Shown piece by piece: positions 10,293 to 29,619 of a DNA stretch of 64,000 bases. The DNA is taken from the IMG/VR virus record IMGVR_UViG_2825252539_000001, positions 1 to 64,000 of that record. The stretch is one strand, 5' to 3'. The notes below the pieces were generated by a model that was given only the letters and a program-made list of their open reading frames with translations, did not search any database and was not told the origin of the DNA. The number at the start of each line of letters is the position of its first letter. Positions within the stretch are counted from its first letter, which is position 1. Source of the DNA: a virus. Lineage: Duplodnaviria; Caudoviricetes. Made by a program: the position numbers and the translations under genes.

Positions 10293-11858
10293 ATGTTCAA
10301 GCGCATCTGGGGTTGGCTCGCCACCCTCCTGCTCGTGGGACTGATGGTCGCCCCCGGGGCGTCCGCTGACCCGTACACCGACGGCCTGGTTAAGAAGTTC
10401 AACCAGACGACCCACGTCGTCACCGATCCCGCGGCCAAGCCGCCGCTGACCAACGGTCCGGCGTTGAATGACCAGATCGTGCAGGGCCGGCGCCCGATTT
10501 ATGTCGCCGTCGTCGCGCCGCCACAGTCGGGCGTGACCACCCCGGACTCGCTGTATTTAGCTTGGACACGGGTGCGCGGTCGATTCGAGGGCGTGCTCCT
10601 GGTGATGGACGCCAAGGGCTATCACGTTCGGGGATTCAACGTCCCTCAGCAGGTCGCCAATAGCATCAACCCGCTCATCGCCCAGTCGATCGCAGAACAC
10701 CGCAATGACCCTGCCGGCACCCTGTCGGCGTTCGTGAGCAAGCTCTCCCAGGTCAAGCCAGCTCCACTCTCGGCGCCCGCGGCACAGACGCATGAGCCGC
10801 GATCATGGACGTGGCTGTGGGTCACCCTGAGCATCATTGGCGGCGTCATCGTGCTCGCCCTGCTGATCTGGGGCGTCAGTGCATACGCTCGCCGTCGCTC
10901 GGCGAAGCGCGAGGAATTGGAGAATCTCCAGGATTCGATTATCGGTGTCGAGGCTGGCGCCGATGACCTAGCCTCTGCGGTGCTCAAGAGCATGGTCGAC
11001 GTCTCCAGCGAGCAGTCCAAGGTATCGCTCGCGCTCGCGGATGCGAAGAAGGCCTTCAAGGACAAGGACTATGCGACGGCGCGTTCACACCTCGCGGTAG
11101 CGAACAAGTACATCGCAGCAGCCAATGCGAAACTGAAGCCGCCCGTGCCGGCCGGCGAGACCTTCACGACGGTCAATGAGAAGCGGGCAGCTGCGAGGGT
11201 GGAATCGGAGCCGACGGAACGCCGGCAGGGCTCGGTCAGGGCCACGAACCCGGACACCGGCCGCAAGGTCACGATCAAGAACTACAACTACCGAACCAAT
11301 GAGACCGCGCAGTACCCGCACTATTACGGCGGCGGCTACCTCAATGGGCTGTACTTCCATCCCGGCTATTACCCGTACCCGTTCTGGGGCGCCGGCTGGG
11401 CCTGGTCACCGGTTGATGTTCTGTTGACCCACGAGCTGCTTGCCGACCACTGGGAGGGCGCCGCGAGCACCCCGACGTACGATGCCGGCTACGACACACA
11501 GGCTAGTACAGAAGCGGCCGGCTGGAACGAAGACACGAACTTCGCCGGCACGACAACAGATGCAGGGTTTGACGGTTCCGACGTCAGCACCACCGATTCA
11601 TCCTCGTCGGACTTCAGCTACGCCGGTTCCGATGACACGCCGTCGTACTCGTCCAATTCAGACAGCGACTACTCTGGCAGCTCCTCGTCATCGAGCGATA
11701 GTTACAGCTCAAGCTACGACTCCGGGAGTAGCGGTTACAGCAGCAGCTACGATTCATCGAGCTACGACTCCGGATCATCCACCAGTAGTTGGGATTCCGG
11801 CGGTTCAAGCTACGACTCGGGCAGCAGTTCAAGCGGGTTCGACTCCGGAGGTTGGTAA
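10293..11858 (+). CDS. Membrane protein with TPM-like extracellular domain and Ser/Asp/Gly/Tyr-rich tail
   Basis: Signal peptide, central TM helix, helical region, SSSYDSG repeats and terminal GGW as in TPM-domain proteins. Confidence 0.65.
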   Translation: MFKRIWGWLATLLLVGLMVAPGASADPYTDGLVKKFNQTTHVVTDPAAKPPLTNGPALNDQIVQGRRPIYVAVVAPPQSGVTTPDSLYLAWTRVRGRFEGVLLVMDAKGYHVRGFNVPQQVANSINPLIAQSIAEHRNDPAGTLSAFVSKLSQVKPAPLSAPAAQTHEPRSWTWLWVTLSIIGGVIVLALLIWGVSAYARRRSAKREELENLQDSIIGVEAGADDLASAVLKSMVDVSSEQSKVSLALADAKKAFKDKDYATARSHLAVANKYIAAANAKLKPPVPAGETFTTVNEKRAAARVESEPTERRQGSVRATNPDTGRKVTIKNYNYRTNETAQYPHYYGGGYLNGLYFHPGYYPYPFWGAGWAWSPVDVLLTHELLADHWEGAASTPTYDAGYDTQASTEAAGWNEDTNFAGTTTDAGFDGSDVSTTDSSSSDFSYAGSDDTPSYSSNSDSDYSGSSSSSSDSYSSSYDSGSSGYSSSYDSSSYDSGSSTSSWDSGGSSYDSGSSSSGFDSGGW

Positions 11859-12068: not shown

Positions 12069-12175
12069 ATTTAGCGGCGGCATAGGCGGTTCCTACTAAA
12101 CCTTTCATTTTGCGAACAAAATACCGCCCGCCCCATAAAGCTTAGGTGCATAGGTAGTTCCTACAATGACGCCCA

Positions 12176-12247
12176 TCGGCAGGTCGCAGGTTCGAATCCT
12201 GCCCGCGTAGCGTTAGCTACGTGGTAGCTCAGTGGCAGAGCAGCCGA
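12176..12247 (+). ncRNA. Circularly permuted tRNA module in array unit 2 (YrlA-like)
   Basis: TCGGC, variable AGGTC, T arm GCAGG-TTCGAAT-CCTGC, loop-closed acceptor CCGCGTAGC-GTTA-GCTACGTGG, D arm TAGCTCAGTGGCAGAGC, GCCGA. Confidence 0.9.
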
Positions 12248-12542
12248 CTCTACAGTAATACTCCCCGCACCTAATTTCGATGTGGCATAGAGAGTTCCTA
12301 CTACCTTGTTAATTTGCAAACACCATTACTCTCCGCTGCGTCAACTTACCTGTGGCACAGAAGGTTCCTCCAAAATTCCTGCTAATGAACATACCTTCCG
12401 CCGCTTAAGACTCAAGGAGTTTCGCACTAAGATTCGATAGTCGGTGGCATAGGCGGTTCCTCCATTAACTTTCAATTGGTGAATCAAATACCGCTCGCCA
12501 CTCATTTTACCGGCATAGGTAGTTCCTCCATTAACCTGTGGA

Positions 12543-12614
12543 GCCGGATGTCGCTGGTTCGAGTCCAGCCATCCCGTCAATGACGGGGTGTAGCTCAGTT
12601 GGAAGAGCGCCGGC
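12543..12614 (+). ncRNA. Circularly permuted tRNA module in array unit 6 (YrlA-like)
   Basis: GCCGG, ATGTC, T arm GCTGG-TTCGAGT-CCAGC, loop-closed acceptor CATCCCGTC-AAT-GACGGGGTG, D arm TAGCTCAGTTGGAAGAGC, CCGGC. Confidence 0.9.
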
Positions 12615-12784
12615 CTGAATTTACTACCCGCCACATAACAACCGATGGCATAGAGGGTTCCTACCAAACCTTTGAATGGATCAGATTTACCCTCCGCTGC
12701 CGGATAACTGCGGCATAGAACGTTCCTCCAAAAACTTCCTGCTAATGAATCATACGTTCCGCCGCTTACAACAAAGGATCTGAC

Positions 12785-14641
12785 ATGGAATCATCGCTGC
12801 GTTTGTTCAAGGCTGTCCTGGTCAACAACCATGACGGCAAGCCGGATGCGTTCGCAGCCCTCGCTGCGCAGACCGTGAAGAATGGTTTCATCTTCGCACC
12901 CGAGGTCGCGACGGAGTACGCGCACACTCAGCTGGTTCAGCAGGTCGACAAGCTGTTCGGCCGAAATGCCGCACAGCTCAACAACTCTTTCCATAAGTCG
13001 TTCGCTAAGGTGCGCGACGCATCGATCCTGCAGCTGTGGGTCGAACAGTCGTTGCACTACCTGACGACGTACGGATTCGAGCACCTCGGCATCTTCAGCA
13101 ATGACACCATCTACGTTCCGAAAGAGGCACTCGACCTCCCTGACATCGACGGCATTCGCCTCGTCGTCATCCGCGGCCTTACCCACCGTGAGATGAAAGC
13201 CGAGCTGCTGAAGCTCCTGGCGACCGGCATCGCCCTATCGCAGCAGTCGGTGACCGATTGCGTGGATGTCGCGCAAGTGCTCACCCTCACACAGGACGAG
13301 GTCGAATCGGTCAAGAACCGCGAAGTCAAGGCCGCCCTCTACGACCACTTCGGCATGGTGCCGTCCGACCCGGTGGAGTTCCTGCGGTTCGTCGTCTACC
13401 GGGCAACTGAGAAGACGCTGCTCATCAAGAACGCCGAGCTGATCAGTGCGCTCAAGACTCGCAACAACAACGACCTGGTCCGCTACTTCCAGGCCTACGA
13501 CGCCGCCAAGCTCGCCACGATCTTCAACCGGTATAAGCCGATCTTTCTTGCGCTGCGGACCAACCCGGCGCTGAAGAAGAAGATCAACCAGGTTCGCCGG
13601 CTGGCCGTGGCCAACCATAAGCCGATGCCCGAGGACTACCTCAACTCGATCACCGCCCGCCTGACGCGGAACGAAGGGATCGATATCCGGGATCTGTCGG
13701 CGAACCTCCAGGCCGCCAACGTCTTCCGCAAGATCCGCCTGGCCTACGCTCTGAAGTTCCGCACCACCAACCCGGATTCGATCCTGTACCGGGTGCGCAA
13801 CGGTAAGTCGTTCGCCAAGGCGTTCTCGTTCACCAACAACAACGTCGAGCACATCTACCAGTACGTCCTGGCGTCCATCGTCAACGACGTCCGGCCGAAT
13901 GTCGCCGGCAAGACGGTCTACATCCCGAAGGGTCTGACGTACGCCCTGCCGGCTACGGAGAAGCAGTTTACTGGCAACCTCCCAACGGGGACGTGCGTCG
14001 AGGTCACCGATGATCTGATCGCAGGCGTCCACTGGCTGGATGTAGATGGCAGCACCATCGATCTCGATCTCTCCATCGCGAACCTCGGCGGAAAGATCGG
14101 GTGGGACGCCCGCTACCGCACGGGTCAGGCTCTCTACTCGGGCGACCTCACCGCGGCACCGCCGCCCCACGGCGCCTCGGAGGTCTTCCGGATCACCGGC
14201 CCGGGCTCGTGGCTGATGTCGGTGAACTACTACAACTACCGCGACAACGTGGACGTGCCGTTCAAGATCATCGCCGGCAGCGACAGCGCGAAGATGATCA
14301 CGGCCAACCGCGTCATCGATCCGAAGTCGGTTGTGGCGTTCAGCAACTCGGTGATGGACGTCCAGCAGAAGACGCTGGGCCTCATTGTCGCCGACCACGA
14401 GAGCAAGCGCTTCTACTTCACCGAAGCGGACTTCATGAAGAGTCGGTCGGCTCGCCATACCACGGCAGCCGAGCACACCCGGCGGTACCTCTACTCGTAC
14501 TACGAGAACACGATCAACCTGAACGACGTTCTCATCGCGGCCGGCGCGATCCTGATCGATACCCCGGAGCAGGCCGACATCGACCTGTCGCCCGAGGCCG
14601 TCGACAAGACGACGATCATCAACCTACTGACGGCGGCATGA
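12785..14641 (+). CDS. 618-aa protein with helical basic N-terminal region and TerD-like C-terminal domain; candidate partner of the RNA array
   Basis: SD AAAGGA; strong phage codon bias; C-terminal VHW...DLDLS...IGWD...YSGDLTAAP...GASE...VNYY motif is TerD-like; N-terminal FHKSF...QSLHYLTTYG. Confidence 0.7.
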   Translation: MESSLRLFKAVLVNNHDGKPDAFAALAAQTVKNGFIFAPEVATEYAHTQLVQQVDKLFGRNAAQLNNSFHKSFAKVRDASILQLWVEQSLHYLTTYGFEHLGIFSNDTIYVPKEALDLPDIDGIRLVVIRGLTHREMKAELLKLLATGIALSQQSVTDCVDVAQVLTLTQDEVESVKNREVKAALYDHFGMVPSDPVEFLRFVVYRATEKTLLIKNAELISALKTRNNNDLVRYFQAYDAAKLATIFNRYKPIFLALRTNPALKKKINQVRRLAVANHKPMPEDYLNSITARLTRNEGIDIRDLSANLQAANVFRKIRLAYALKFRTTNPDSILYRVRNGKSFAKAFSFTNNNVEHIYQYVLASIVNDVRPNVAGKTVYIPKGLTYALPATEKQFTGNLPTGTCVEVTDDLIAGVHWLDVDGSTIDLDLSIANLGGKIGWDARYRTGQALYSGDLTAAPPPHGASEVFRITGPGSWLMSVNYYNYRDNVDVPFKIIAGSDSAKMITANRVIDPKSVVAFSNSVMDVQQKTLGLIVADHESKRFYFTEADFMKSRSARHTTAAEHTRRYLYSYYENTINLNDVLIAAGAILIDTPEQADIDLSPEAVDKTTIINLLTAA

Positions 14642-16807: not shown

Positions 16808-17001
16808 GACTTCCCCTCGGGCATCCTAGGAAAGCGGTTATCCCGGCTGTTGGGGCCTTCCGGCAGCGAATCGGCACCCGTAGACCCAGGGGAACCCCGT
16901 GTCAGTAGGCGGCAACAATCCTGTGGTGGGTGAGCCACACCAGCCGAAGCGACCTTCAACCAGTCCGCACGGGGACAAACTTCGACGCCCCAAGGAGGGC
17001 A

Positions 17002-17703
17002 ATGATGCGACGTTACTTCATTGAGTCCGTTGGTGTAGCGATGCTCGCTACGGGCGCCTCGTACATCATTGCCTATCTTGCCGGCTGGATTACGGCCGTG
17101 AATTGGCTGGAAGTGTTCGCCGTCTGGACCTCCTATGCGTGCACGTGGCTGTGCGTTCGCCAGAGCCGCTGGAACTACCCGATCGGCGCCATCTCCACCG
17201 CGGCCTACGCCGTATTGTTCTGGCAGGCAGATCTTCTCGCCTCGGCTCTGCTGAACGCCTATCTGACGCCGGCACTCCTCTACGGGTGGTTCCGCTGGCG
17301 TCAAGACTCCGAGACCCGACCAGTGACCCGCGTCGCTTGGAAGTGGTGGCCGGCGTATATCGGGGTAACCGCCGCGGCTTATTACGGTGCGATCTGGCTG
17401 GTAACCACCCTGAAGGGTAGCTTCTCGATCACCGATGCGCTCATCCTGATCGGGTCCATGCTGGCTCAATTCTTGTTGGATAACAAGAAGATTGAGACCT
17501 GGGCCGTCTGGGCGATCGTCAACGTCGCAGCGATCTACACGTACTTCCACGCGAGTCTCCCGCTCGCGGGATTCCAGTACATCCTATTCCTGGCCAACAC
17601 CGGTGTTGGCTATGTCGTCTGGAGGCGTAGTGTCCAAAGCGTTCGTGCTCATGAAAGCTATGCCGCCGACCACGGGTCATCTGCAGCTCATCCAGTTCGC
17701 TAA
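17002..17703 (+). CDS. pnuC: Nicotinamide riboside transporter PnuC
   Basis: Multi-TM protein with WLE..AV.....CTWL..RQSRWNYPIG, YGWFRW, DA.....S.LAQFLL..KKIETW..W..VN motifs; SD AAGGAGG. Confidence 0.92.
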   Translation: MMRRYFIESVGVAMLATGASYIIAYLAGWITAVNWLEVFAVWTSYACTWLCVRQSRWNYPIGAISTAAYAVLFWQADLLASALLNAYLTPALLYGWFRWRQDSETRPVTRVAWKWWPAYIGVTAAAYYGAIWLVTTLKGSFSITDALILIGSMLAQFLLDNKKIETWAVWAIVNVAAIYTYFHASLPLAGFQYILFLANTGVGYVVWRRSVQSVRAHESYAADHGSSAAHPVR

Positions 17704-18691
17704 GCACCTCAGCCCCGCGGGCGTAACCGTTCTTATCGATACGATTCCCGCTGAGCCAATGGTTCCTGAACGTATCGCGGCCTTGAAGAAGGCGACTTAT
17801 CGCCTGGGTAACGTTCACATCCAACACGTTTCTCAGTGGCTTCCGGAAGACCCCGAGTCAGAGGGTTTCCGAGAGCTGTGGCGCGGGATTCTGATCGGTG
17901 CCGGCGCGCGGCCAGGCGACTACCTGGTGACGAGTGAGCCGTACGGCAAGTGGCTGGCCGAATTGACCGAGACTATCTGGATGCCCTACGACATCCCGCG
18001 GTTTATCAACGGAACACGGGCGACTGCCATTCGCGATGACTTCGTGAGCAATTGGCGGGCAATCCTTCCCGAGTTCCGCCCTCACTTGCAGACTCGCGTG
18101 ACGATCTTCGGCGCCGAGTCGACGGGGAAAACCGATCTCTCATGGATGCTCGCTGACGACCTCGACGCGACGTGGTTGCCCGAGTGGGCGCGGCCGTACC
18201 TGGAGAACGACGAGAACATCGTCAATGTCCGGACTATGACGAACATCTGGCACGGTCAAGCCGCGCTACAGCGTCAAGAGTTCCTGGACACCCCGATCAT
18301 CATCCAGGACACCGACCTTCTCAGCACCTGGGGCTACTGGAAGTACTGGGCTCACCATTACGACAGCTTCGAGCCTTTCGCTCGTCCGCGGTTGACCGAG
18401 TGGGTTCCTCAGGCGCTAGATGACGAAGCGCGCGAGCTTGCTTCCGACCTGTACATCGTCACGCCGAGCAACATCCCGTTCGAGCCCGACCCGCTGCGGT
18501 ATGGCGGCGACAAGCGCGAGATCGACGACCACTACTGGGGCAATTTCCTCGCCCGCGTGGGCGCCAGCGGACGGAGCATTAACTACCAGTTCCTGACGAG
18601 CGAGTCACGGTCGGACCGTCTAGTCGAGGCCAAGGGATTCATTCAGCGGGTGATCGACCAGAAGCAAGCCAAGATCGCCTACAAGCGTTAG
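17630..18691 (+). CDS. nadR: NadR-like NMN adenylyltransferase / nicotinamide riboside kinase
   Basis: N-terminal nucleotidyltransferase motif PPTTGH; P-loop GAESTGKT; EWARPY, DTD and PFEPDPLRYG motifs; adjacent to pnuC; GTG start with SD GGAGG. Confidence 0.88.
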   Translation: MSKAFVLMKAMPPTTGHLQLIQFAKHLSPAGVTVLIDTIPAEPMVPERIAALKKATYRLGNVHIQHVSQWLPEDPESEGFRELWRGILIGAGARPGDYLVTSEPYGKWLAELTETIWMPYDIPRFINGTRATAIRDDFVSNWRAILPEFRPHLQTRVTIFGAESTGKTDLSWMLADDLDATWLPEWARPYLENDENIVNVRTMTNIWHGQAALQRQEFLDTPIIIQDTDLLSTWGYWKYWAHHYDSFEPFARPRLTEWVPQALDDEARELASDLYIVTPSNIPFEPDPLRYGGDKREIDDHYWGNFLARVGASGRSINYQFLTSESRSDRLVEAKGFIQRVIDQKQAKIAYKR

Positions 18692-23534: not shown

Positions 23535-25930
23535 GCCCCCATGCCAATGCACCGGATGCGCAGTCGGCCATGTCGAGGACGCGTGTCCCGATGATGCATC
23601 TTGGTACGTCGAACTCCACCCCGTGGATATCTGCGACGACCACTACGCCTCCCGCGGAGACCTGTGCATCGACTGCTTTGACGCGATCGTAGCCAAGTGC
23701 AACACCGTGATCGCAATGGGTGCTGTCAATCTACGGCCACCCTGCTGCGTTGAATGCCGCACCCCCATCGAGAAGCTCAGCGACATTATCAAGGATGTGG
23801 TGAAGCTATGAGCCGCGACTTCGACGATGTCGCCAAGGTGTACGTGACTCGAAAGATCGGCCGGCGGATCGGGAATCGCGAGATCCGCAGTGTCGACTTC
23901 GAGTTCAGCTCGTATATGGATGGATGCTGCGAAGAATGTCAATACCCGACGTCGGAGATCCGGGTGTCGGTGTGGTTCACCGACGGGTCTCATGAGTCAT
24001 TCGAGACCGGCAGCTGGCTCGAAGAATTCTTGAAAGAACTAGTTGCCGCAGCCGAATAGGAACTCATCATGGCCGTCTTAATCGTCATTGCCGCAGTTGT
24101 AATCATGGCAGCCCTCTGGTTTTTCATCCGCGAAACACTGGACGGCGATCCGATCTTCGGTCTTGGAATTGCCGCCTTCACCCTCGTGGGCGGGAGTGTT
24201 CTAGGGTCTCTGGTCGCCTTGATCGCGACGTTGAGCCTCAGTCCGATCGTTGGTTACCACTACACGTATCAATCACAACCGCTGGTCACACTTACGGACG
24301 AGCGAAATTCGCTCGGTGGACAGTTTTTCCTTGGCACGGGATACATTAGTGAAGGTGCCGTCTATACGTTCTACACCGACGACGGTGGCTATCGCTCGAT
24401 GCACCAGACGGGCGTGGGTGGCGTGAGAGTCTATGAAGACAGCCCTAAACCGTATGTGGTCTGGGAGACCGGTTGCGAGTCGGACCATCCGGGCATCGTC
24501 TTCTGTGTTGGTAGCAGTAGTCGCAAGCTGGTCGAAATCCACGTTCCGCCGGCATCGATCAAAACCGGCATCAGTATGGGCGCACGGTGACTCAGCGGGA
24601 GCGTGTGGCTGAAGCATTGATTCGTGTCGACGGCCGAGGTGGATTGCGACGCATCTCACCGGCCGACCGTTTGCACTACCTGAAGATGGCCGACGCGGCA
24701 ATTGACGTCATGACGGTTGAGGATGTCGAGCCCTACCTTGGAAAGGCGCGTATCGATGCTTAAGGAATGGCTGCGCCGCGCCAAGGGGCGATGCCTCTCG
24801 TGTGGCTGCGGATTGGTGTGGGTCGGATGATCGCGACGATCATCACCAATAGTCTCGGGTTCGCAGCGAAGGCGGCGGATTGGGCGCTGAGTCGCATCGG
24901 GTCCGACATGGATCGGTTCCTCACGATGGGCGGTTCAGAGTGGTACGCCACAGGGCCGACCGAATGGATGGGCGATGTCCCTCCGCCGTCCGACGCTCGA
25001 CTGATCGGAATTATCGCTCAGGCCGCCCATGGGCACGGCCTGCATCGACTCCTCGACGGTAGTGAGCTGCTCGACCTGGCGGACGACATCCTCATCGGAT
25101 TGCGCAGCAACGGAATCGAGTTGCGATGAAACGCGTAGCCGGCGCCTTCGGCGTTGCAATCTGTCTTGTCCTGGCCCTGGCCTCCTTGGTCCAGCTGATC
25201 GCCGCTTGCGTGCCGGCAACACCTGCCCGCGGCGAGCTGGAATCGGTGCGTGTACAGCGCATCGATGGGGGAGCGTCCTACCCATTTCTCGGCGGATGCC
25301 TGATCTTCACTCACGACTCCATGCAGGGAGCATCGATAGCGGTGGCATGCAAATGACGCCCGAAGAACTCTACGAGATGTATCGCGAGTGCGGCGAGAAG
25401 TATTGGAACGAGCTAGATGTCAAAGAGCAGGATCGTTGGAATCGTGTTGCTCGCGCTGTCGATTCGTGGGGTGATGCGCAGTATCTCGAAGGTTGGAACG
25501 CGGGCGAATTCGGCGACTGACGCCCAGCGAGCGCGGCAACTGTTCGACAGCCGCTGGACGACTCAGCCCGACGGTAGCCGAGTGGGACCAGCCATCCATG
25601 AGGACGCGCTTCGGTTGTTGAGCGCCGACCCGGCGGAGTACTTCCGCCTGAACCGCATCTGGAGGGCGTTAAAACATGCCGAGCTATAGCGCAAGCTACA
25701 ACGCTGCTGATCTTCGCGTCCATATGGGTAGCGATGGCAATGTGCAATTCGCGATGTGGGTGGACGGCAAGGCTATCTCGACCTGGCAAATGACCCCCGA
25801 TAAAGCGATCGACTTTGCGAACAATCTGCTGGACACGGCACGAGGAGCCGCTCATGGTCACGAGAAGACAGATGCTCCGGACTGCGGATCGCGGTTATGC
25901 CGGTGTAGTGGTACACAACCCGAAGCATGA
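23527..25930 (+). CDS. Run of small hypothetical and membrane ORFs (including 24069-24590 membrane protein)
   Basis: Tightly coupled co-oriented ORFs. Confidence 0.55.
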
Positions 25931-26333
25931 GGTGAACGTCGGAACGCTATGGCGTTCAGCGTTTCTCTATGATGCGAAATTCATCGGGACCGTCGGCCGG
26001 CGGTACGAGCATCAAGCGTCGGATACCTCAAAGACGCCCAACCGCGTTCCGATGTTCGAATACTCCGACATCGACGACCTGAAAAGGCACTTGCCGTACG
26101 GGTGCCCGTTAATCGGTGTTGAGTTGCACGACCGCGCGATCCCACTGAACCGGTTCCATCATCCGCAGAACGCCGTCTATCTGCTCGGTTCCGAGGACCA
26201 CGGTCTGCCACCCAAAGTACTTGAAGCCTGCCACCAGATCGTTCAGGTGCCAACGTCGCGCGAGTGGTCAATGAACATGGCCGTCGCCGGATCGATCGTC
26301 CTGAGCCACCGCTACATGCAGAGGATGCCATGA
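25854..26333 (+). CDS. SPOUT (SpoU/TrmH/TrmL-like) RNA methyltransferase
   Basis: NVGTLWRSA, YLLGSEDHGLP and SMNMAVAGSIVL motifs. Confidence 0.9.
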   Translation: MVTRRQMLRTADRGYAGVVVHNPKHEVNVGTLWRSAFLYDAKFIGTVGRRYEHQASDTSKTPNRVPMFEYSDIDDLKRHLPYGCPLIGVELHDRAIPLNRFHHPQNAVYLLGSEDHGLPPKVLEACHQIVQVPTSREWSMNMAVAGSIVLSHRYMQRMP

Positions 26334-27976
26334 CCGATCTTTCAACACTGCCAGAGCGTATGCGTTTCGCAGCTGCCGTGCTTGATGAAGCTCGTGCGGA
26401 ATTCCGGCGCCGTGGAGATTCGCAAGCGAATCCCGACTGGGATGGTCTCGCATGGAATAAGGCAGACCTCTGCACCCTGGCCTCCCGATGGGAGGACGCG
26501 GACCAGGCGCTTGTCGAGGAATTAGCGATGGACCTTCAAGCGGCACTTGTGGTCAGCGTTGGTGCGTACCCATGGGCCAAGATCGAAGCCAGCCCTGACC
26601 ACCATTGGGTCATGGATGCGCGTCGCAAAGAGGCTCAAGCCCTAGTCGACGCCGGCTGGACCAAACCGTGACTGGCCGTGTCTGCCCCGCCTGCGAACGC
26701 ATCGCGTATTCGTTCGTCGGGGAGATCTGCGAAGACTGCGAAGCGGCCTGGGACTACGACGATTACCGCTCTGACGAGTACGACGAGTACTGACCATATG
26801 AAAAGGCTTGACATGACACGCAATATCTTCGCTCTCCGCGCGGTTCGCGATCTCATCAAGAAGTCGCCGGAGAAGCACGCCCAGGACTCTTGGGCAGCCA
26901 TTGAGGCCGATCAGATCGTCTTCCCCGAGGGGGGCGTCGCGAAGGTTTCATGCGGCACCACTGCCTGCGTCGCGGGCTGGGCCGCCACGCTGGCCGGCGC
27001 GAAGTTTCTCATCGAAGAGGACGATCTCGAAGATGGTGTGTACTACGCCGAGAAGGTCGAAGGTCTCGATGGCCAGACCTACTGGGTCGACAGCTATGCG
27101 CGGAACGTCCTGGGCCTGAAGCCTTCCGAGGCTGGCTTGCTGTTCAATGGTGACCTTGAGCGTAAGGAAGTTCTCAAGTTGCTGAAACGGCTCATCGAGG
27201 GCAAGGACATCTGACCGGGGTGGCGCAACTGCCCTTTGCCTGCCCTAGGTGTACGGCTCGCTGGGGTGGCTTGCTCACCGCACACTGTTCAGCGTGCCAC
27301 GAGACATTCACTGGCATTACCGCATTCGATGCCCATCGCACCGGCTCTCACACCGAGAGCGGCGAAAAGATCATTGACAAAGACAAGACCGAACCGCGCG
27401 GCCCGAGGCGATGCCTTCCACCGGCCGAGGTCGGCTTAGTCGATGCCGAGCGGGCCTATCCCTGCTGGGGATACCCCAAGGGTGTCTCCTGGTGGGCGGA
27501 ATCAGAAGAGGCTGGGGAGCTTTCAACATGAACATCAAGTACCGCGGTCGAGAGATCCAGAACCCGATCCTGCGCAAGGTTGCCTTCACCCTGATGACGA
27601 TCTGGATTGTCGTGTTCGTGACTCTGATGATCATCAGCTCACCGCTATGGCTCCTGATTCATTTCCTCCTCCGCATAGCCGGCCTGAGGGGCTTCATCCA
27701 AACAGGGGACGGCGAGGTCTCTCTGATCTTCACCGCCGACTCGTTCAAGCGATGACGATTTACTGGGCCTTAGCGGCAGGAGCCTTCATTGCCATGTGGT
27801 TGCCGATGGTGGTTACGGTCTGTGGTGATGCCGCTGATGGGGGAGGTGTCCTCGCGCTGGCCTTTATTCCGTTGTTTACCATGGGCATTGCCATCTTCGC
27901 GGCAGTCTGGCCACTCACGATCGCGGTGCTCATCATTTACGCGTGCTTTGCGATCGATTGGGATTTCAGCAGATGA
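26330..27976 (+). CDS. Small ORFs including a second CGTTACVAGW protein (about 26814-27214), an FDxHR Zn-binding protein (27220-27531) and membrane peptides
   Basis: AHCSACHETF....FDAHR motif; coupled ORFs. Confidence 0.6.
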
Positions 27977-28665
27977 GCGACACTCTCGGGGACCGGATCA
28001 AACGCTACGAGCGGGCTTACAACCACACCCTCACCCCGCGCATGCCGGTCATCATCCGAGTGGATGGCAGGGCATTCCACACACTTACTCGCCACCTGAA
28101 CAAGCCGTTTGACCACACCCTCATGTCGGCCATGGTGAACGCGGCGATCGACGTCTCACGAGACATGCAGGGGTTCAAGCTCGGATATCACCAGTCCGAC
28201 GAGGTTTCGTTTCTGTTGACTGATTACGACCAACTCGACACTCAGGGCTGGTTTGGCTACGAGCTGAACAAGATCGTCTCGTTGACAGCGAGCCTGTTCA
28301 CCGCGCACTTCTACGCGAACTGTCCGGCCACTCTTCGTGAAAAGTTCGGCCGTGTCGCGACATTCGACGCGCGCGCATTCAATGTGCCGGCTGAAGATGT
28401 GCCCAACGTGTTCATCTGGCGGCAAAGAGATTGGGAGCGCAACTCGCTGCAGATGCTCGCTCACTTCTACTTCTCCCACAGCGAGCTTCAATGCAAGGGC
28501 CGGCGAGAGATGCACGACATGCTGCACGGCATCGGTATCAACTGGGCCGATCTGTCGAGCCGCGAAAAAAACGGCACCTGGATTCTGCACGACGGCGACG
28601 TCACCAGCGAGCGCTGGACCTACCCCGAAATCGAAGACGTCATTGCTGGAGCTATGGCGGCATGA
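27973..28665 (+). CDS. thg1: Thg1-like tRNA-His guanylyltransferase / 3'-5' polymerase
   Basis: IIRVDGRAFH, YHQSDEVS, FDARAF and WRQRDW.RNS motifs. Confidence 0.93.
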   Translation: MSDTLGDRIKRYERAYNHTLTPRMPVIIRVDGRAFHTLTRHLNKPFDHTLMSAMVNAAIDVSRDMQGFKLGYHQSDEVSFLLTDYDQLDTQGWFGYELNKIVSLTASLFTAHFYANCPATLREKFGRVATFDARAFNVPAEDVPNVFIWRQRDWERNSLQMLAHFYFSHSELQCKGRREMHDMLHGIGINWADLSSREKNGTWILHDGDVTSERWTYPEIEDVIAGAMAA

Positions 28666-28680
28666 CCCTAGGAGTTTCGA

Positions 28681-29619
28681 ATGACCACCCTGACATGCAT
28701 GCGGGGGATCAGCGGATCAGGTAAGAGCACCCGGGCACGCGAAATCGCCGATAGCACCGACGCTGTCGTGGTGAACCGTGACTATCTCCGAAAGCAACTC
28801 CTGGGGGAGTGGTTCACCGGAGAGAAGGTCGACGAAGACCGTGTCACCATCGCCGAGGACGCTCAGGTCCGCGCCCTTCTGAAATCCGGAGTGAACGTCG
28901 TTGTCGACGCAACTCACCTTCAGACCTCGTTCCTCAAGAAGTGGGCTCGGCTGGCATCTCGCCTCGGCGCGGACTTCGAGGTTGTCGACGTTGAAGCTGA
29001 CGTCGAGGAGTGCAAGCGCCGAGTGTACGAGCGCTGGTCGAACGCGATGGGCACCGATTCCGCCCGCTTCATCGAGGCGAATGTGATCGACCAGCAGGCG
29101 AAGCGATTCGCCAAGCGGCAACCGGTCGCGGCTGACCCGCCATTGACTATCAAGCCGGCGCCCGAGTGGGATGGACGACCCCTGGCCGTGCTCTATGACC
29201 TGGATGGCACCGCGGCCATCCATCAAGGGCGCAGCCCGTACGACTACACCCGGGTCAGGGAAGACGCACCCAACAATCACCTCTGCCACCTGCTGTGGGC
29301 GATCAAGGTCGCACATCCTGATGCGAAGTTTATTGCGTGCTCCGGCCGCGACGACACCTGTCGGGATGACTCGACCTGGTGGTTGGACAGATACGACTTC
29401 CCGCTGAACCAGCTCTTGATGCGCGACACCGAGGCGGATAAGGACAGTCACGGCAACAAACTTCGCGACGTCGAGGTGAAGTACCGGTTGTACAACGAAA
29501 ACATCCGGGATGTCTACGACGTCATGGCGGTGTTCGATGACCGGCTCCAGGTCGCCGAACTCTGGCACGAACTCGGCCTGCCGCTGTATCGCGTCGGCGA
29601 TCCGAATAGCGACTTCTAA
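28681..29619 (+). CDS. pnk: Polynucleotide 5'-kinase / 3'-phosphatase
   Basis: GISGSGKST P-loop, NRD, VVVDATH; HAD motifs DLDGT, SGR, FDDRLQV. Confidence 0.93.
   Translation: MTTLTCMRGISGSGKSTRAREIADSTDAVVVNRDYLRKQLLGEWFTGEKVDEDRVTIAEDAQVRALLKSGVNVVVDATHLQTSFLKKWARLASRLGADFEVVDVEADVEECKRRVYERWSNAMGTDSARFIEANVIDQQAKRFAKRQPVAADPPLTIKPAPEWDGRPLAVLYDLDGTAAIHQGRSPYDYTRVREDAPNNHLCHLLWAIKVAHPDAKFIACSGRDDTCRDDSTWWLDRYDFPLNQLLMRDTEADKDSHGNKLRDVEVKYRLYNENIRDVYDVMAVFDDRLQVAELWHELGLPLYRVGDPNSDF

Follow-up and report, generated by a model that had tools for sequence, protein, structure and literature searches.

Cleavage of tRNAs is a frequent end point of toxins and anti-phage systems. The 152,748-base provirus examined here carries an array of hairpin RNA units, and the original prediction held that these units form a panel of anticodon mimics on a common protein-binding handle, possibly serving as decoys or sensors for anticodon nucleases. 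The locus raises the question of whether the units display anticodon loops and what such a display might be for. By the window we mean the whole stretch of DNA that was analyzed, which comprises 64,000 nucleotides (IMG/VR record IMGVR_UViG_2825252539_000001, positions 1 to 64,000; Duplodnaviria, Caudoviricetes).

An array of eight RNA units

Eight hairpin RNA units extend from 12079 to 12763 on the + strand and are followed, after 21 nucleotides, by a reading frame of 618 amino acids. The eight units are a 367-nucleotide duplication of a four-unit block, and therefore units 1 and 5, like units 4 and 8, are not independent pairs. Nowhere else in the provirus is the array motif found. The six units other than 2 and 6 have loops of 27 to 32 nucleotides. 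The features are as follows.

12079..12132, + strand: unit 1, handle and short loop; CTTTCAT at 12102 lies 5' of the hairpin or overlaps it
12146..12270, + strand: unit 2, handle with one mismatch and a YrlA-type permuted tRNA module
12178-12248, + strand: tRNA module of unit 2, with T arm, closed 7-bp acceptor stem and D arm
12284..12337, + strand: unit 3, handle and short loop; most of TTGTTAA at 12306 is base-paired in the hairpin predicted there
12354..12402, + strand: unit 4, handle and loop; Ser(GCU) heptamer CTGCTAA at 12379, with an optional 3-bp TTC/GAA closure (8-nt loop)
12446..12499, + strand: unit 5, duplicate of unit 1; Glu-like CTTTCAA loop at 12469 in one of two folds
12512..12632, + strand: unit 6, duplicate of unit 2; handle and YrlA-type permuted tRNA module (12545-12612)
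12536, + strand: His(GUG)-like heptamer CTGTGGA of unit 6, in tRNA register
12647..12698, + strand: unit 7, handle and short loop; CTTTGAA at 12670 overlaps the 5' strand of TTTG[AATGGAT]CAGA
12712..12763, + strand: unit 8, duplicate of unit 4; Ser(GCU) heptamer CTGCTAA at 12739
12785..14641, + strand: gene for the partner protein of 618 amino acids

No sigma-70 promoter was found between 11500 and 13200, and no convincing terminator follows the array. ARAGORN reported zero tRNA genes in the window and the provirus, and a canonical cloverleaf with an anticodon arm was not found there. At the gathering score, Rfam returned only tRNA and tmRNA for the array units of the window and 15 related loci, and a DNA similarity search of the array against annotated phages gave only matches to tRNA T and D arms. 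Just upstream of the array region (10293-11858) is a gene for a 521-amino-acid membrane protein with a long C-terminal tail rich in Ser, Asp, Tyr and Gly.

A covarying handle and tRNA-body modules

The handle has the consensus GGC-AHA-RNNNRU/UCCU...ANNNNY-C-GCC, in which GGC and an AHA bulge precede a six-pair stem, the loop opens with UCCU(A/C), and the partner strand is followed by a bulged C and GCC. When both handle halves were set by sequence only, all five inner positions pair in 268 of 289 units from 143 protein groups, compared with a mean of 41 and a maximum of 62 with shuffled partners, and the middle position uses four pair types. The common handle proposed in the original prediction is thus a conserved stem that covaries. 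A reading of the repeats as CRISPR-like elements or DNA sites was rejected because they pair 5' with 3' and covary as RNA.

Units 2 and 6 contain a permuted tRNA module in the order T arm, acceptor stem and D arm that corresponds to positions 23-88 of the Rfam YrlA model (RF02553). Their score of 36.8 bits is below the gathering threshold of 69, and at gathering YrlA has no match in the 15 related loci. A second permutation accounts for 39 matches (32 distinct), wherein a tRNA body of normal order carries a permuted handle in place of the anticodon loop. Examples are L215:3681-3790, L196:3685-3795 and L055:3499-3615, and some of these are called tRNA by Rfam. In both permutations, the handle and the tRNA body join at the anticodon loop, which is the cut site of anticodon nucleases.

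Loops in tRNA register occur on tRNA bodies for Pro, Lys, Ile and Thr in L004, L055, L008/L009, L087 and L321. Position 37 of the tRNA-body units is a purine in 28 of 30 cases (17.6 expected), and positions 37-38 are kept. Enrichment of U33 is not seen (13/30 versus 9.0, p=0.07), and only 2 of the 30 heptamers belong to the set of real anticodon loops defined below. The handle bears a D stem and an anticodon arm in L279, L280 and L299. In these three and L330, which are large phage contigs, the units lie scattered among the genes and form no array, and the protein is encoded far away in the record.

Anticodon-like heptamers in the window

All seven heptamers claimed for the array are present at the positions given for them. 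Measured offsets from GTTCCT(A/C)C are 5, 4, 7, 5, 6, 5 and 9 nucleotides, matching the proposed spacing of 4-9, and the heptamer of unit 6 does lie in exact tRNA register, occupying positions 32-38 before the 3' anticodon strand GCCGG. This strand pairs with a CCGGC located after the D arm. Unit 2 has no anticodon-like heptamer in tRNA register. What did not survive is the reading of every heptamer as a loop, since three of the seven overlap stems.

How often such heptamers arise by chance was judged from loop shuffles. The loose pattern Y-U-NNN-R-(A/U) is found at offsets 3-9, a range picked post hoc, in 7/8 units versus 2.33 expected (p=0.0002), and anywhere in the loop in 7/8 versus 4.89 (p=0.11). 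A set of real anticodon loops was built from 203 distinct tRNAs of related loci and holds 100 Y-U heptamers. Exact members of this set occur anywhere in the loop in five of the eight units versus 1.30 expected (p=0.004), and in 4/6 versus 0.95 (p=0.006) without units 5 and 8. Four of the seven named heptamers (units 3, 4, 7 and 8) are in the set.

In the minimum-energy fold, none of the seven forms a closed 7-nucleotide loop. When aligned, the short units share a hairpin of the TTC...GAA type, with the Ser heptamer of units 4 and 8 inside its loop, and the heptamers of units 1, 3, 5 and 7 begin in its 5' strand. In units 1, 3 and 7 the heptamer overlaps this strand, and forcing a 7-nucleotide loop costs 4.3, 9.0 and 6.1 kcal/mol, respectively. 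Judged from these predicted folds, the three heptamers are probably stem sequence. Unit 5 has two near-equal folds, TTC[AATTGGT]GAA or CATTAA[CTTTCAA]TTGGTG, and the one that exposes CTTTCAA as a closed 7-nucleotide loop lies 0.3 kcal/mol above the best fold with a pair probability of 0.145; units 1, 3 and 7 have no such fold. The heptamer of units 4 and 8 stands in an open loop that is closable as an 8-nucleotide loop on TTC/GAA with a probability of about 0.07, and in the best fold of unit 6 some of the heptamer is paired to the conserved UCC linker. Plausible anticodon displays in the window are Ser(GCU) in units 4 and 8 and His(GUG) in unit 6, and unit 5 perhaps displays Glu(UUC).

Anticodon loops in homologous arrays

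Dereplication at 85% loop similarity reduced the units from 468 to 291, and loops longer than 45 nucleotides or with a T loop were excluded from the short-loop tests (288 to 245). The rule-based, tRNA-body and loop-size counts omit L311, which spans two units, and L313, which is on the contig of L007. The unit finder misses units with a non-purine first base, and unit 2 of the window was added by hand.

The original prediction implied that real anticodon loops should be enriched over shuffled loops in homologous arrays, and this is borne out at the level of the family. With the window itself left out, a real heptamer forms a closed 7-nucleotide loop, meaning one with three or more closing pairs, in 24 of 240 non-redundant short loops versus 1.1±1.0 expected. 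Of these 24 loops, 18 start 4-9 nucleotides after the motif (0.5 expected). The result is similar with dinucleotide shuffles (24/245 versus 2.1±1.4) and when the loop letters alone are permuted in fixed hairpins (22/143 hairpins versus 1.8), and the reverse-complemented and reversed controls yield 2 and 1 closed real heptamers. Such loops represent 24 of 150 array hairpins (16%) versus 125 of 10,539 (1.2%) for hairpins in AT-rich control DNA taken from these loci. The finding was replicated in loci found independently by DNA pattern (8/57 versus 0.45, or 7/56 without one repeat contig).

The excess is specific to size 7, as real heptamers number 2, 3, 24, 4, 2 and 1 in loops of 5 to 10 nucleotides. 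Loop sizes as such also peak at seven (60 versus 19.7 of 293). Register specificity is not absolute, because heptamers shifted by +1 and +2 from the 7-nucleotide loop are somewhat enriched as well (7 and 10 versus 0.8). Unclosed heptamers at offsets 4-9 are mildly enriched (18 versus 10.4), the loose pattern is found anywhere in the loop in 181 versus 164 of 245 homologues, and a rule-based pattern detects a closed anticodon loop in 44/296 short units.

Identical loops are carried by different stems. The Asn loop CTGTTAA is closed by five (TCT/AGA, ATC/GAT, CTA/TAG, AGA/TCT and GCT/AGC), the Ser loop CTTGAAA by four, among them TGA/TCA, AGT/ACT and an A-run/T-run, and the Ser(GCU) loop CTGCTAA by different stems in L019, L164 and L191. 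These A/U-rich stems are unlike the G/C-rich stems of real tRNAs, and the same loops appear in different protein groups. Because identical loops sit on unrelated stems in separate protein groups, the sequence comparison indicates that selection acts on the loop and its closure and not on tRNA ancestry. More than 20 anticodon triplets are displayed, with Asn(GUU) and Ser(UGA) in the lead.

A closed anticodon loop is carried by about 10-15% of short units and is lacking in 216/240, and even by a looser rule only 39/149 protein groups have one. Other units display a tRNA body, either permuted or whole, a T loop, a (U/A)UGG hairpin or simply a stable hairpin, and some show hairpins of the UUCG/GNRA type. 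T-arm units make up 24 and D-arm units 14 of the 291. The (U/A)UGG hairpins (25 versus 2.8 expected) fit D-loop mimicry or Pro/Gln loops with altered positions 32-33. Recurrent hairpins in L015 (-318, -140), L048 and L105 have loops that end in ACCA and are possibly acceptor-end mimics. The proposal of a panel of anticodon mimics on a common handle thus holds with regard to the covarying handle and the enriched true mimics, but the array is not a uniform panel.

The partner protein and its association with the RNA

The 618-amino-acid protein is predicted (pLDDT 92) to comprise a small alpha/beta N-terminus, helical repeats with invariant basic residues (Arg/Lys at 249, 251, 338 and 393) and a C-terminal domain of the TerD fold (versus 2qz7: Z 9.7, rmsd 3.2, 144 aligned). 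Neither Pfam, including TROVE (PF05731), nor PHROG has a family for it, a search by sequence found no solved structure, and Foldseek with the N-terminal model returned nothing at E<=0.001. The only long structural matches are Ro60 chains, which align weakly over 196-287 residues (Z 5.4-6.2, rmsd about 6). The best of these for the helical part is 9l5y (Z 6.1-6.2, 196-241 aligned, rmsd 6.2-6.6), and a second comparison aligned only 69-75 residues with Ro60. HHalign gave a probability of 0.2 for the N-terminal alignment against 7 TROVE proteins, a shallow set on the TROVE side, and a profile search of TROVE proteins, also a tiny set, gave a best E of 0.03. A C-terminal vWA domain with MIDAS was not found, the TerD fold occupying this place. 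The provirus has no TROVE gene and no Ro60 orthologue beside the array, and TROVE is present in only 9/44 genomes carrying the system. Homology to Ro60 is putative; the layout is like that of Ro60 and Y RNAs, and membership of the Ro60 family was not found.

A similar fold is predicted for the SCO0854/Prok-RING_4 group and for phage 'cytoplasmic proteins' (Atlas TM 0.60, BFVD TM 0.44-0.58). The Pfam text for PF14447 describes ROT/TROVE-like repeats plus TerD. Unlike the SCO0854/Prok-RING_4 group, the partner protein has no RING domain.

Relatives of the partner protein number at least 1,881, and the loci fetched were the best 80 of 261, 427 and 288 relatives. At least one RNA unit is present in 214 of the 226 loci with more than 300 nucleotides upstream, and 162 loci have two or more; these loci are redundant and represent 165 protein groups. 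The reverse-strand background is 12 motif hits in 1.98 Mb. Among the carriers are contigs of phages, assemblies of archaea and bacteria, and chromosomes of Chryseobacterium. With the RNA motif as the starting point, the protein is encoded within 2.5 kb in 67 of 80 viral loci, namely those of 97 motif loci that have long flanks. The 13 loci without a nearby protein come from 12 records, of which four, including the only complete one, encode it elsewhere, and the remaining eight, without the protein, are 2-28% complete. In phages and bacteria alike, the RNA family occurs together with the protein.

tRNA repair genes near the arrays

The commonest neighbors are RtcB and RlaP. RtcB occurs within loci in 10/165 groups, and in six groups it ends 269-482 nucleotides upstream on the same strand, together with a divergent WYL gene. 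Some repair gene is present within about 4 kb in 19/165 groups, with none in the other 146, and phage loci repeatedly contain genes for RNA ligase, PNKP and CCA enzymes. In six Bacteroidota loci (L189, L193, L194, L198, L209 and L232), the divergent WYL gene, RtcB, the RNA array and the helical/TerD gene are clustered. RlaP ends the cluster in three of the six, and a small HopJ-family gene is found in five. This cluster looks like an undescribed RNA repair operon.

The provirus, in which RtcB was not found, encodes Thg1, PNKP, a SpoU methylase, two RNA-ligase-family matches and a CCA-enzyme-like match, and has no tRNA gene. These genes are located at 25815-29619 of the window and at about 48.9 kb, 130 kb and 135 kb of G000, the provirus record. 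Because the PNKP is 65% identical to mycobacteriophage enzymes, we infer an actinobacterial host. Located 2-4 kb downstream of the partner gene (16930-18691) are genes for a PnuC-type nicotinamide mononucleotide transporter and then a NadR-like AAA_28 protein.

Comparison with known systems

The system resembles Ro60 (Rsr) and its YrlA and YrlB RNAs (PMC4201824; RF02553) in that several small RNAs are located just upstream of a gene for a helical-repeat protein, the 5' and 3' ends form a bulged stem, some units have a permuted tRNA module, and there is linkage to rtcB. In addition, the CUAC after the array stem recalls the conserved YUAY of Y RNAs (PMC4201824). However, the array handle carries GGC-AHA-R, and the Rsr-binding motif of YrlA, GNCGAAN0-1G, is absent from the array. 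Where Ro60 has a vWA domain, the partner protein has TerD, and its sequence shows no similarity to TROVE. In contrast to YrlA, short units of the array family display anticodon stem-loops, and a second permutation exists.

The Chryseobacterium loci recall the Salmonella rsr-yrlBA-rtcBA operon (PMC7790460) in that one regulated unit combines RtcB, small tRNA-like RNAs and a protein of RNA-binding type. The Salmonella operon has an RtcR/CARF regulator, whereas array loci have WYL, an RlaP neighbor, another protein and another RNA handle. Thermus phage phiLo likewise has an RNP gene with upstream hairpin RNAs, encoding Ro60 with Yrl1 and Yrl2 (PMC12135203; 9l5y). The phiLo protein, however, is a canonical HEAT and vWA ring, its RNAs have a CGAA motif, and anticodon mimicry is not mentioned in the available sections of that report. 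The tRNA-Lys of phage T5 acts against PARIS AriB (PMC12409363) and is likewise a phage RNA that answers tRNA cleavage. T5-type tRNAs are full decoding molecules mutated against cutting (PMC12409363), whereas the array RNAs are non-decoding fragments with a host-like loop.

Upstream of two planctomycete Ro60 genes (L249 and L250), 500 nucleotides contain repeated units with a T-loop sequence and a GGAGTACATGG motif that the two loci share. These repeats before TROVE genes are perhaps a further uncatalogued Y RNA array.

The literature that we searched has no description of the RNA family or of arrayed anticodon-loop decoys, and reviews beyond it may mention the protein family. As judged from sequence, the system appears to be of a known kind in its Ro60/Y RNA-like layout and new in its handle, TerD protein and display of anticodon stem-loops.

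Possible functions of the RNA-protein system

In the model we favor, the array would be co-transcribed with the downstream gene and cut into small RNAs, each closed by the common bulged stem. The helical/TerD protein would bind this handle and stabilize the RNA as Ro60 does Y RNAs. Sequence comparison shows that the variable part presents a piece of tRNA about 4-11 nucleotides from the handle. This piece is an anticodon stem-loop whose stem is weak and A/U-rich, a permuted or whole tRNA body that is open at the anticodon loop, or another arm-like hairpin. We consider such a ribonucleoprotein architecture highly probable. The most likely role of these non-decoding mimics would be to serve tRNA anticodon nucleases as decoy substrates or to inhibit them competitively, forming one arm of a tRNA-damage response beside repair enzymes. 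The chances that the decoy or inhibitor role is correct seem to us about even. Stem-loops of 17 nucleotides are targets of PrrC, whose action a stable stem impedes (PMC3014915), isolated stem-loops are cut by Cas13b6 (PMC13692257), and YrlA has been proposed to be a competitive inhibitor of an anticodon nuclease (PMC7790460). On the other hand, PrrC depends also on base modifications (PMC3014915) that the array mimics may lack, and an anti-defense role is less obvious in bacterial chromosomes, where the system also sits.

Alternatively, the RNAs might tether the protein, as in RYPER, to those host enzymes by which parts of tRNAs are recognized. Each loop could recruit a different partner, be it a ligase, a nuclease such as PNPase, a modification enzyme or a synthetase, and broken tRNAs would be repaired or cleared. 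The variety of displayed parts, notably T arms, D arms and (U/A)UGG hairpins, is consistent with this function, as are the rtcB and RlaP neighbors and the Ro60/Yrl/PNPase complexes described for a phage (PMC12135203). We nevertheless regard tethering as rather unlikely, and it leaves more than 20 anticodon triplets with exact 7-nucleotide loops unexplained. The stem-loops might also be tripwires whose cleavage sets the TerD protein free, activates it, or leaves cyclic-phosphate ends that induce a WYL-regulated repair operon. Weak stems would be easily cut (PMC3014915), tRNA fragments activate the Salmonella rsr-yrlBA-rtcBA operon (PMC7790460), and a divergent WYL gene is present in six Bacteroidota groups. 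However, most loci are without WYL, the partner protein has no effector domain beyond TerD, and real tRNA fragments already serve bacteria as a signal; a sensing role seems improbable to us.

We assign a still lower probability to the view that only the handle is functional and that the loops are inert spacers or drifting remnants of captured tRNA genes, with the window heptamers arising largely by chance. Genes for tRNAs occur in 40/242 loci, the loose pattern is common anywhere in the loops of the window and its homologues, and most loops have no closed anticodon loop, all of which speaks for this view. In contrast, drift does not account for the recurrence of identical loops in independent groups on A/U stems that are unrelated and fully re-paired, nor for the peak of 7-nucleotide loops. 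This view is strongly disfavored at the family level, but it may hold for units 1, 3 and 7 of the window.

Biological significance

In the literature surveyed, phages answer tRNA cleavage with replacement tRNAs and repair enzymes. If the decoy reading is true, they would have a third answer in small RNAs that present exact anticodon loops on exchangeable stems. The purpose of tRNA mimicry by bacterial Y RNAs is left open in two studies (PMC4201824, PMC7790460). The array variants naturally split the handle from the display, so loop swaps can test this mimicry directly. How Y-like RNAs originate from tRNA genes is suggested by the two circular permutations in which handle and tRNA body are combined.

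In its broadest form, our proposal is a tentative one to which we give somewhat less than even weight. The system may be a widespread and undescribed ribonucleoprotein in which a TerD-fused helical protein holds an evolvable cassette of mimics that copy tRNA parts without decoding. Its set of anticodons would be tuned in each genome to the tRNA nucleases encountered, and would thereby provide an RNA-based, programmable counter-defense or a means of bacterial self-protection, as well as a readable record of the tRNAs that are attacked.
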